From an uncultured Candidatus Rokubacteria bacterium (lineage in GTDB: Bacteria; Methylomirabilota; Methylomirabilia; Rokubacteriales; CSP1-6): a stretch of 64,000 nt of DNA. The notes below the pieces were generated by a model. The model ran no database searches. It saw only the letters and a list, made by a program, of their open reading frames with translations, and was not told where the DNA came from. The translations under genes were made by a program, and so were the position numbers. Below are positions 11,842 to 22,079 of the stretch, in pieces. The stretch is taken from positions 944,121 to 1,008,120 of the forward strand of contig CAVYTA010000005.1 in the NCBI GenBank assembly GCA_963771355.1. Direction: 5' to 3'. The stretch's first letter is position 1; each line of letters opens with the position of its first letter.

Positions 11842-12435
11842 TTGGCCTCGGGAAGCTGGGAAGACGTGGCGCGCGGCTATCGGCGCTACCGGCAGCTGCC
11901 GGTGTGGGCGGGGCAGAAGGCGATGCCGAATAATCAAGGACTTCTGTCGCGTGAGCTGATCCGGGACATGAAGGCGCGCGGCGCCAAGGCGGCCGCGGAC
12001 GTGGAGGCCGCGCTGGCGCGCCTGGTCGGTGAGGCCGCGCTACCAGAGACCCCCCGCACGCTCGAGCAGCGTCACGTGGACGGCCTCGCCGCGAAGCGGC
12101 GGCTGGGACGGGAGACGCTCGAGGCCCTCTGGGAGGCCATCGTGTTCGACCGGGGCGGCTACACCTGCGCCTACTGCGGCCGGACGCCGGAGAGCGTCTC
12201 CCACGCGGAGGGCCGGCGGCGCGGGCTGCTCCTGGTGGTGGACCACTTCAGCGCCCGCTCGACGCTGGCCGAGCGGCACCGCCTCGACAATAGCGTCACG
12301 TCCTGCGCGTCCTGCCGTGCGGTGAAGGCCGACCTGCCGCGCGATCCCTTCCTCGACGAGCTGCGCTCGCAGGCGAGCGCGGTGGCGGCGCGGCACGCGC
12401 GCTCGGAAGGCGCGCGCGGGGAGGCCGCCGGCTGA
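11842..12435 (+). CDS. HNH-fold (Zn-binding) protein
   Basis: CAYCG...VVDHF...DNSVTSCASCRAVK; start codon (TTG) uncertain. Confidence 0.7.
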   Translation: MASGSWEDVARGYRRYRQLPVWAGQKAMPNNQGLLSRELIRDMKARGAKAAADVEAALARLVGEAALPETPRTLEQRHVDGLAAKRRLGRETLEALWEAIVFDRGGYTCAYCGRTPESVSHAEGRRRGLLLVVDHFSARSTLAERHRLDNSVTSCASCRAVKADLPRDPFLDELRSQASAVAARHARSEGARGEAAG

Positions 12436-13804
12436 TGAAGCGCGGCCGCGCGGCGCAGGCCGCGCTCCTGCTCTCCCCCTTCCTGATTTCCCTCCTGCTG
12501 TTCCCGCCCGCCCCGTTTTCGGCTGGTCGCTCTCCGTCGGCTCCACCACCGGCAATCGTGTGGCCGCCGGGCGCGGCAGCTTTCCGCGCTTTCACGCGTT
12601 CGGCATCGCGACCGAGGTGCCGATGCGCTGGGTGGTCCTGCTGGACCCGACGCGGCTCGCCACCGTGGATCGCGAGGGCACGATGTGGATCCTCGACGCC
12701 TCCCGCAGCGGACTCGGCGTGGCGGCGCGCTACGGCGAGGTGGTGAACCCGGAGGCGCCGCCCGCGGTGGTGGCGCTGGACGAAGACCAGGTGGGCCTGG
12801 CCCTGATCGGCCGCGACGGCCGCCTCATGCTCTGGAGCGATGAGGCCCTGCGGAGCTACGACGTGGGGGCGCCGCTCTCTCAGCTCGCCGTTCCCACCCC
12901 GGTGCGGCTGACCGGCCAGCACTGGGATGATCTGCTCGCGGTGGCGGCGGACGGCGCGGTGGTGCTCATCGGCGGCCTGCCCTCGGGGCCCCGCATCGTG
13001 TCGCGGGTCGAGGTCCGGGCCTTGCCGGACGCGCGCATCACGCTGGCCGACCTCGACGGCGACGGCATGCCGGAGGCGGTGATCCTGACCGACCCCACGG
13101 AGCGGTACTCGCAGGGCTTGCTGGGGGACCGCGCCGAGGCGGCGAGCGTCACCGTGATCGGCGTCACGCCCTTCGGCCTGTCGCTGCGGGGGCGGCACGC
13201 GCTGCCCACCGCCGTCTTCGAGGATCTCGTTCCCGTGCTCGCGCCGCTCGGTCCGGGGAGCCGCCCCGCGGTGCTGATGGCGCGGAGCACGGCCCAGCAG
13301 GGAACGGTGGTCAGCGCGCTGGGCTGGCGGGACGGGGCACTGGTGGCCCTGGCCGAGAGTCCGCCCGCGGACCAGGCCGATCGCTGGATCCACGTGGTGG
13401 GGGTGGCCGATCTGTCGCGTGACGGCTCACCCGAGGTGGTGGCGGTGCGCACTCCCCATCTGGGCGGCGTGCTGACCGCCTATCGCCGCAAGGGGGCCGC
13501 GCTCAACGTGGCCGCCCAGGTGGTCGGCTTCGCCTCCCACACCGCGGGCTCGCGCAACGCGGACCAGGCCCTCATCGCGGACCTCGACGGGAACGGACGG
13601 CTGGAGGTGATCGTGTCCCGCCCGTCGCGGGAGACCCTGGTGGGGCTGGAGCGCAACGGCTCCCGCTTCGTGGAGCGGTGGAACATCCACCTCCGCGCCG
13701 CCATCGAGTCCAACCTGCTCGCCGCCGACGTGGACGGCGACGGGCTGCTCGATCTGGTGGTCGCGGATCGGCGGGCGCTCTACGTGTTCTTCAGCGTAAG
13801 ATAG
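12435..13804 (+). CDS. Secreted FG-GAP/VCBS-repeat beta-propeller protein (one frameshift near 12503)
   Basis: Signal peptide MKRGRAAQAALLLSPFLISLLLF in one frame joins PARPVFGWSLSVGSTTGNRVAAGRG... in the next frame if one C is added to the CCC run at 12503-12505; repeats DLDGDGMPE, DLSRDGSPE, DLDGNGRLE, DVDGDGLLD. Confidence 0.8.
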
Positions 13805-13809
13805 CGGGC

Positions 13810-14550
13810 ATGCGCCCCCGACTCTTCTATCGCCCCGGCTGAAGCAGCTGCGCCAAGACGAAGGAGCTCCTCACGTCTTGGGGGGTCGAGTTCGACCCGG
13901 TGAACGTCGAAGGAAATCCCGCCGGCCTGGAGGAGCTGCATGCGGCCGGCGTGCCGCTCGTTCCCGCGGTGGTGGTGGATGGGCGCGCCGTGCACGGCTG
14001 GAATCCGCCCGGCTATGCCGCGCTGCTCGGCGTCGAGTATCACCCGGCGGTGCAGCTCTCGCCCCGTACGCTGGCCACGCGCCTCGACCACATCCTCGCC
14101 TGCACCGGGCGGCTGGTAGCGGCGTTGCCGGCCACCGCGCTCGCCTACAAGCCGCCGGAGCGCGACCGCGACCTGCGCAATCTCGGCTTCCACGTGTTCC
14201 GCCTGGCGCTGGCCTTCGCCGACGGCATGGACCGGGGCGAGTTCCCCGAAGGTTGGCTGCAGGAAAAGGCGCCCGCCGACCTGGTCGACGGACCGTCCAT
14301 CGCGCGCTACGGCGCGCTGGTGCGCGGCCGCCTGGCCGGCTGGTTCGAGGGGGCGGGGGATGGGGAGTTTGCCCGCACCATCGCGGTCTACTACGGGCCG
14401 CAGTCCGGGCATGATCTCCTCGAGCGCACGACCTGGCATGCCGCCCAGCATCTCCGCCAGCTCCATGTGATGACGGAGGGGCTGGGCCTGCGACCGCCGG
14501 ACCCGCTGCCCGACTTCACCGGCCTGCCCTTGCCCGCGAGTCTCTGGTGA
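13810..14550 (+). CDS. Glutaredoxin(UxxC)-DinB fusion, predicted selenoprotein
   Basis: ATG 13810 reads MRPRLFYRPG-TGA(13840-42)-SSCAKTKELL in frame with the 13900 ORF; Grx cis-Pro (LVPAV); DinB His motifs (GFHVF, WHAAQHLRQL); hairpin CCAAGACG..CGTCTTGG starts 10 nt after the UGA. Confidence 0.85.
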
Positions 14551-21419: not shown

Positions 21420-22079
21420 ATGCCATTCCTCTCCGCGGCCGACGAGCAGGCGGTGCGTCAGGAGTTCGAGAAGCTGAAGGGCCCGGTGAAGATCACCGTG
21501 TTTGCCTCCGAGCTGGGTGGCGAGAACAACCAGCAGACGGTGGCGCTGGTCCGGGAGGTCGCCGCGCTGTCGGATCAGATCTCGGTGCAGGTGCTCAACC
21601 CGCTCATCGAGCGCGAGCAGGCCCAGGCCTATGGCGTGGACGTGACGCCGGCCCTGGCGGTGGAAGGCGCGGCGGACTATGGCATCCGCTTCCTCGGCCT
21701 CCCCGCCGGCTACGAGTTCGCCAACCTCATCGATTCGATCATCGTCGCCTCGACCGGCGAGCCGGCCCTCAGCACGGCCACCCGGGACGCGCTGGACGGC
21801 CTCGGCGCGGACGTGACGATCAAGGTCTTCACCACGCCGACCTGACCCCACTGTCCCCGGGCCGTGCGCCTGGCGCAGCACATGGCGGTGGCGTCGAGCA
21901 GGGTGCGGGCCGAGTGCATCGAGGCCACCGAGTTCCCGGAAATGGCCCAGCGCTACCGCGTGATGGCGGTGCCCAAGATCGTGATCAACGACCGCGTCCA
22001 GTTCGAGGGGGCGCTGCCGGAGCCGCAATTCCTCGCCGCCGTGCTCGAGGCCGCGGGTGGCGAGGCGGCGAAGGGCTAG
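21420..22079 (+). CDS. Protein disulfide oxidoreductase (PDO/AhpF N-domain-like, two Trx folds), predicted selenoprotein
   Basis: ORFs 21420 and 21864 are in one frame, joined by TGA 21843-45 in VFTTPT-U-PHC (CxxC position); GLPAGYEF, MAVPKIVIN, FEGALPE. Confidence 0.9.

Follow-up and report, generated by a model that had tools for sequence, protein, structure and literature searches.

The window considered here (the whole 64,000-nucleotide stretch of DNA that was analysed) carries on its plus strand a frame in which an ATG at 13810-12 is followed by ten codons (MRPRLFYRPG), a TGA at 13840-42 and codons for S-S-C, and which then stays open to a further TGA at 14548-14550. This raises the question of whether the first TGA is read through as selenocysteine, giving a protein of 246 residues, and what such a protein, proposed in a preliminary description to be a glutaredoxin fused to a DinB domain, might do. 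That description's reading of the start, the ten codons, the in-frame TGA and the SSC is correct. Without read-through, ORF calling starts at the GTG at 13900 and gives 216 amino acids. The features of the gene and its transcript are:

13810 to 14550, plus strand: full coding sequence of the 246-residue Sec-glutaredoxin/DinB fusion, stop codon TGA (14548-14550) included; relatives align across residues 1-246
13840 to 13842, plus strand: in-frame UGA, almost certainly Sec11, the first position of UxxC; 76 of 77 loci have TGA here, and orthologues on plasmids and in metagenomes have Cys
13849 to 13851, plus strand: resolving Cys14, last residue of U-S-S-C
13853 to 13881, plus strand: SECIS-like hairpin; core pairs 13858-13861 with 13873-13876, apical-loop G at 13866 invariant
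13883 to 13898, plus strand: second small hairpin directly behind the SECIS-like one, present in minimum-energy folds and kept in the close clade only

The TGA is no assembly error, because in two other studies DNA contigs, from two runs in all, read across the codon with 13840-42 unchanged. Contigs from RNA libraries lie over parts of the gene, none of those listed spanning the TGA, and these are not taken as expression; a promoter scan for the gene found none. The residues upstream of the TGA are conserved, with G10 invariant and Y7 and R8 kept in at least 90%. As had been anticipated, standard annotation cuts the gene short, such that only 4 of the 120 best database matches cover at least 98% of the protein.

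Comparison of homologues for Cys versus TGA, suggested earlier as a check, recovered both forms at this codon, in the close loci as well as in a second subfamily. Among the best 80 of 126 close genome loci, 77 cover the codon, which is TGA in 76 and TGC in one. Within the phylum the gene is matched in 93 of 151 genomes (79 of 93 relatives from the window's family, 11 of 11 from the sister family, and 90 of 105 relatives within the order, the window's genome not counted); 88 of the 93 matching genomes have one TGA inside the match, while the other five matches lack the N-terminus. Some of the counts for gene presence, selA, egtD and selB include the unpublished genomes G100, G057 and/or G028, on which alone no conclusion rests. 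A profile search recovered 212 representatives at E <=1e-30, many of which, among the matches listed, are full length with GCSSC or GCTSC in place of the Sec motif, and Cys forms occur on 14 plasmid records from Rhizobium, Caballeronia, Burkholderia, Roseomonas and Variovorax. In the second subfamily (the best 80 of 577 metagenome loci) the codon is TGC or TGT in 61 of 80 and TGA in 11, with another codon in two and the N-terminus missing in six. The in-frame UGA lies opposite a Cys in the orthologues, and the residues before and after it are conserved. A quick, unrooted tree of 44 non-redundant rows (out of 114 passing filters, from 166 loci and the window), built after removal of the motif and hairpin residues, needs six changes between Sec and Cys, at least four of them forced by well-supported branches; being unrooted it does not give their direction. 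A metagenome scan with the protein P0146 gave no match, and a 151-genome sample around the genome G151 gave a match in G151 alone. A divergent Sec subfamily from other families of the phylum (L097:4984-5736 and L098) has G-U-F-T-C and G-U-T-N-C motifs and an altered C-terminal motif, with His210 missing in L098.

In the usual model of a bacterial SECIS element, a hairpin follows closely on the 3' side of the UGA and one of the first bases of its apical loop is a G; both a conserved hairpin and such a G are found here. The hairpin described earlier is present in all its parts, namely an 8-bp stem (13853-60 with 13874-81), an inner 3-bp stem and an AGCU loop, beginning 10 nt past the UGA, and 13853-13881 is the minimum-energy fold. 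Taken alone the window's hairpin is only modestly better than chance, with a z of -2.0 over 61 nt, which 5 of 200 shuffles match, and of -2.9 over 36 nt (3 of 200). That it is under selection across relatives is well supported. Once 11 loci with identical or near-identical sequence are set aside, 67 sequences remain, in which 88.9% of the cells of a 12-pair stem are paired, as against 38.6-53.0% in slid controls, and three pairs of the stem account for 29 double-sided changes; kinship among the sequences inflates these counts. Across 74 genes the 116 fourfold-degenerate codon positions have a median entropy of 1.26 bits, and only two of them do not vary at all; these two zero-entropy sites are the third bases of codons 17 and 22, the G's of the hairpin's two central pairs. 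The upper stem differs in register among members, and RNAalifold alone retains only the 4-pair core (-1.29 kcal/mol).

All four genes of the selenocysteine machinery, whose presence had been named as a further check, were found in the window's genome, which is 99.77% complete: tRNA-Sec (selC) is followed about 2-5 kb behind by selA and selB, and selA, selB and selD all score above their cut-offs. Elsewhere, selA is present in 75 of the 88 genomes with a TGA-containing match. The 13 such genomes without selA have selD in ten and selB in five, with at least one of the two in 12, and four of these five selB matches begin within 500 bases of a contig end. Hosts of the gene from outside the phylum have selA in five of five cases. 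A crude scan of the window's genome returned 62 TGA read-through candidates, about 30 of which look, by eye, to be of known types (Prx, AhpD-like, UGSC, DsbA, SelW-like and FDH); one further candidate, C8:141186 on the minus strand, ending EEFTGF-U-CGF, could be assigned to no selenoprotein type. The window itself has a second selenoprotein gene at 21420-22079 (plus strand; TGA at 21843-21845, U-P-H-C motif), which when read through scores 249 bits against a cut-off of 185 on TIGR02187 and belongs to a known family, the protein disulfide oxidoreductases homologous to the AhpF N-terminal domain. Relatives place the organism in the Rokubacteria/Methylomirabilota, a phylum credited with large selenoproteomes in parts of a recent survey (PMC13188914). 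Thus, the codon, the hairpin, the Sec machinery and the Cys orthologues together bear out the selenoprotein reading: the in-frame UGA is almost certainly decoded as selenocysteine by way of the hairpin 3' of the codon, and that this insertion depends on SelB can hardly be doubted.

The translated protein resolves into two domains, as had been claimed, with the following features:

13810 to 14037, plus strand: NrdH/YruB-like glutaredoxin domain, residues 1-76; PF00462 at 45.5 bits, GWNP motif
13963 to 13965, plus strand: Pro52 of the predicted cis-Pro loop, invariant
14053 to 14511, plus strand: DinB/YfiT four-helix bundle, about residues 81/82-234, as predicted from a fold match to 6iz2 (Z 16.6)
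within 14053 to 14511, plus strand: conserved DinB-domain residues R118, R120, E205, R206, W209, R216 and Q217
14191 to 14193, plus strand: His128, the first of three predicted metal ligands, kept in 400 of 403 aligned rows
14437 to 14451, plus strand: His210-x3-His214, second and third predicted metal ligands; 399 and 400 of 403 rows

The Pfam Glutaredoxin match (residues 5-60) lies well above the gathering cut-off of 22.9 bits, and this score, the predicted thioredoxin-like fold, the C/UxxC motif and Pro52 define the first domain as a glutaredoxin. In the AlphaFold2 model of the window's protein (pLDDT 93.6, pTM 0.86; a Cys orthologue of 64% identity, modelled with 103 sequences, reaches 95.2 and 0.90), predicted residues 1-76 match the NrdH/glutaredoxin structure 3zij with Z 14.0 and an rmsd of 1.3, and 7c10 with Z 12.3. 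Cys14 is kept in 208 of the 211 family rows covering the position. DinB_2 matches residues 87-218 with 23.4 bits against a cut-off of 24.8, which three of six scanned relatives exceed; on the predicted model, the fit to 6iz2 has an rmsd of 2.1 over 143 residues, 3dka follows with Z 15.4, and the top six Foldseek rows are all DinB/YfiT. The predicted four-helix fold is accompanied by the H...HxxxH triad noted earlier (His128, His210 and His214), kept in about 99% of the 403 family rows and invariant in 54 of 54 aligned proteins. Arg118 and Arg120 recur in 382 and 392 of the 403 rows. The protein reaches the cut-off of no NCBIfam model, the Uxx-star selenoprotein models included; on the classical glutathione-dependent glutaredoxin model TIGR02181 it scores 20.6 against 90 bits, and its host is without gshA/gshB.

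These observations can be combined into a functional proposal, to which we give about an even chance: the UxxC domain would be a reductase that is fed by thioredoxin reductase (TrxR) and whose substrate is a small compound bound in the metal pocket of the DinB domain, with no part played by glutathione, bacillithiol or mycothiol. A divalent metal would sit on His128, His210 and His214, and together with the Arg118/Arg120 pair would hold an anionic small substrate in the pocket; Sec11 would attack the bound substrate, Cys14 would resolve the adduct to a selenenylsulfide, and TrxR/NADPH would re-reduce it. NrdH-type redoxins are reduced by thioredoxin reductase in this way, and a TrxR gene scores above its cut-off in the window's genome. 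The tethered UxxC might in this manner take the role that a diffusible thiol plays in other DinB enzymes. The more specific form of the proposal, a DinB enzyme whose tethered selenol arm reaches its own metal pocket in place of a diffusible thiol co-substrate, is offered only tentatively.

A rather doubtful alternative, closer to the earlier suggestion of selenol chemistry coupled to bacillithiol or mycothiol transfer, is that a low-molecular-weight thiol is handled by the DinB domain as its S-transferase or S-conjugate lyase and that the Sec-glutaredoxin keeps the thiol or its conjugates reduced. The predicted fold indeed matches YfiT (Z 14.1), MST (Z 13.0) and BstA (Z 10.2), and the characterised His-triad DinB enzymes are metal-dependent S-transferases as far as parts of three sources describe them (PMC5815605, PMC10950700, PMC4360819). 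The thiol inventory of the hosts speaks against this, since gshB, bshC and mshC are each found in none of 61 genomes of the order, with controls as expected; the host probably makes neither bacillithiol nor mycothiol, and the earlier idea is weakened. The window's genome likewise has no above-cut-off match to gshB, bshC, mshC or either gshA family, and its sub-cut-off MshC match, adjoining tuf and a tRNA cluster, is most likely a CysRS. Because Cys forms also occur in Proteobacteria, which are generally glutathione users, there is no one small thiol that would suit every host. The enzyme might still be a transferase for some other thiol, which would have to be CoA, cysteine, imported or novel. 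Ergothioneine was considered as a partner and rejected, as egtD does not track the gene: it scores above its cut-off in the window's genome beside an egtB-like gene, and is present in only 20 of 61 genomes of the order; the sister family, in which 11 of 11 genomes have the gene, shows egtD in 0 of 14. At the locus L089:5778-10651 (G000:C6 about 2319800-2324650) egtD is divergent from an egtB/ovoA/senA-like sulfoxide synthase gene, which falls below all three cut-offs and is followed by a longer TrxR-like protein, and a candidate AhpC/TSA-like selenoprotein lies directly behind egtD. The 22 DinB_2 matches in the window's genome, which favour the S-transferase account, suggest in the absence of gshA/gshB, bshC and mshC either an unrecognised small thiol or non-thiol roles of DinB domains; the former may exist because all eight DinB-type enzymes of B. 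subtilis are bacillithiol transferases, as stated in parts of PMC5815605.

The gene neighbourhoods bear on two further alternatives. The gene's neighbours in the window, both on its own strand, encode an FG-GAP repeat protein, whose stop at 13804 lies 5 nt ahead of the ATG, and a class V aminotransferase; they flank it in only 8 and 6 of 81 filtered loci, respectively. In the analysis of the 80 genome loci, 44 of the 81 loci left by filtering have an enoyl-CoA hydratase and 40 have a class I/II aminotransferase; these neighbours were rejected as a functional clue, being plain Rokubacteria synteny. A 197-residue frame at 11842-12435 (plus strand), between the enoyl-CoA hydratase and FG-GAP genes, shows weak HNH similarity (E 0.006) and is seen in only 6 of 81 loci. 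At the 80 second-subfamily metagenome loci no real neighbour family occurs in more than 12 loci, and a 39-locus neighbour cluster appears to be dominated by antisense frames. The Cys forms are accompanied by genes for amidase, isochorismatase, AtzG-like, LeuCD-like, dioxygenase, CoA-transferase, MmgE/PrpD and transporter proteins, which hints at a link to the catabolism of small organic compounds, with no single pathway named. In a single example (P0181, 721 residues) MmgE/PrpD is itself fused to the Cys-form glutaredoxin-DinB protein.

This last fusion, the LeuCD-like, isocitrate lyase/PEP mutase, MmgE/PrpD, amidase and dioxygenase genes around the Cys forms, and a predicted fold match to 2nsg (Z 13.5) would fit a non-redox isomerase or lyase resembling the mycothiol-dependent maleylpyruvate isomerase, in which Sec11 would be a built-in nucleophile adding to and then leaving a metal-bound unsaturated acid. 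We regard it as improbable, since the resolving Cys would be superfluous to an isomerase and yet is kept in nearly every row, and no gentisate-type pathway gene is recurrent among the neighbours scanned. Quite unlikely, too, is a role in metal or metalloid handling, with the UxxC and the His triad forming a relay or a bound metalloid being reduced: one compact protein does appear to have two potential metal-binding sites, and parts of PMC13188914 tie many bacterial selenoproteins to metal resistance, yet no ars, mer or metal-transport gene is recurrent in the neighbour clusters scanned from 160 loci, and the conserved Arg/Tyr/Trp residues of the pocket suggest an organic ligand.

The proposed reductase acting at a DinB pocket presupposes that the domains work together. 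In the predicted models the glutaredoxin domain is probably packed on the DinB bundle in a fixed arrangement, because a freely linked pair would score a pTM nearer to the larger domain's share, and the fusion is present in members down to about 26-30% identity. Eight DinB copies without a glutaredoxin domain (L091-L096, L099, L100) were examined in genomes with a full Sec copy elsewhere; at least five lie at the usual site behind enoyl-CoA hydratase. In five of them two or more of the three His are gone with the frame still open, and the three copies that keep the whole triad are from one genus. This decay of the triad points to coupling, suggestively only, the copies being few and related; the His-depleted ones are possibly pseudo-enzymes or remnants. 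Three of the top interdomain coevolution pairs (L50-L150, V51-L241 and N65-F130) would turn the glutaredoxin substrate-binding loop toward the DinB pocket, but the hint is weak: 130 of 2000 random draws do as well as the 3-pair patch, and L50-L150 is confined to the near clade, so that, while pairs inside the DinB bundle are plausible, the interdomain signal was dropped as support for coupling. That weakness, and the open-frame copies with an intact triad (three of eight), are what might favour independent modules, i.e. a general Sec-dependent protein disulfide reductase and an unrelated DinB domain in one chain; the defined interface implied by the predicted models (pTM 0.86-0.90), the retention of the fusion at low identity and the triad decay in five of eight copies make this, again, quite unlikely. 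The reading of the TGA as a real stop (which would leave a short peptide and a separate DinB protein begun at GTG 13900), as the mark of a pseudogene or as an error of sequencing is scarcely credible, for although gene callers start downstream, few database matches are full length and one 78%-complete genome has the TGA gene with no selA, selB or selD match, it is at odds with the conserved residues before the TGA, the near-constancy of this codon in the close loci, the Cys orthologues, the constrained SECIS bases and the TGA in independent contigs.

The selenoprotein reading brings into the bacterial selenoproteome a domain architecture not listed there so far, ties selenium to the DinB superfamily and corrects a family cut short by gene callers. 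It also raises the question of how Rokubacteriales, with more than 20 DinB-domain proteins in the window's genome and without gshB, bshC and mshC, run thiol-type chemistry. Culturable Variovorax, Caballeronia and Roseomonas carry Cys orthologues, which makes the enzyme directly assayable. The interest is tempered by the fact that no kind of selenoprotein is commoner than the thioredoxin-fold UxxC domain. Should the tethered-selenol reading be true, no DinB enzyme before this one would have depended on selenium; it would be present almost throughout a soil order that is abundant and produces none of the three classic redox thiols, and its Cys versions would serve catabolic pathways in Proteobacteria.

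The closest known systems each share one part of this protein. The Cys-dependent GST classes omega and xi combine an N-terminal thioredoxin-fold catalytic domain with a helical substrate-binding domain, a functional analogy only: GSTs are among the fold matches with whole-chain TM-scores of about 0.26-0.29, and the helical domain here is, unlike the GST C-domain, a DinB bundle with a predicted metal site. The Uxx-star selenoproteins (NF041212 and relatives) and the NrdH and YruB redoxins have an N-terminal domain weakly alike by profile, with scores far under the cut-offs (28 against 66 bits for NF041212, 31.6 against 85.75 for the NrdH-redoxin model TIGR02194 and 37.5 against 88.55 for a third model), and none of these models contains a DinB domain. 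The members of the DinB/YfiT S-transferase-like superfamily (BstA/YfiT, DR0053, mycothiol S-transferase and MDMPI) have the four-helix bundle predicted here and the His...HxxxH triad, although solved DinB-type chains are only 6-23% identical to the gene product, which differs in having its own UxxC/CxxC domain and in hosts without bshC, mshC and gshB. In the parts of the sources concerned, the metal of B. subtilis BstA is held by three His (PMC5815605) and the M. tuberculosis MST site is described as two His and an Asp (PMC10950700), as opposed to the three His predicted here.

The 2026 table of 119 selenoprotein families (PMC13188914) lists the glutaredoxin UxxC family and has no DinB-containing entry, nor does its text use the term DinB, which is also absent from the main text and four supplements of PMC12013277 and from the main text of PMC13326102. 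NCBIfam has no DinB-containing selenoprotein family, and full-text searching turned up no earlier account, a listing under generic glutaredoxin in other surveys being conceivable. The selenoprotein glutaredoxins (PF00462, UxxC; PMC13188914 Table 1), including cGrx1, whose structure 7c10 is the best PDB sequence match of the gene product (E 1.7e-11), share with it UxxC in a glutaredoxin fold; they are single small domains, whereas here a 165-residue His-triad DinB domain is added, in hosts without glutathione synthesis genes. Proteins named 'glutaredoxin domain-containing protein' or 'DinB family protein' in RefSeq/GenBank (for example WP_207446294.1 from Roseomonas, WP_244817409.1, and WP_162571355.1 from Variovorax) are Cys orthologues of the same architecture and motifs, and automatic glutaredoxin+DinB_2 clusters exist in the ESM Atlas; these forms have Cys in place of Sec and bear names taken from domain labels, with no function and no NCBIfam family model attached. 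Thus, in conclusion, Sec-glutaredoxins and Cys-form glutaredoxin-DinB proteins are both known, and what is new is the Sec form of the fusion.
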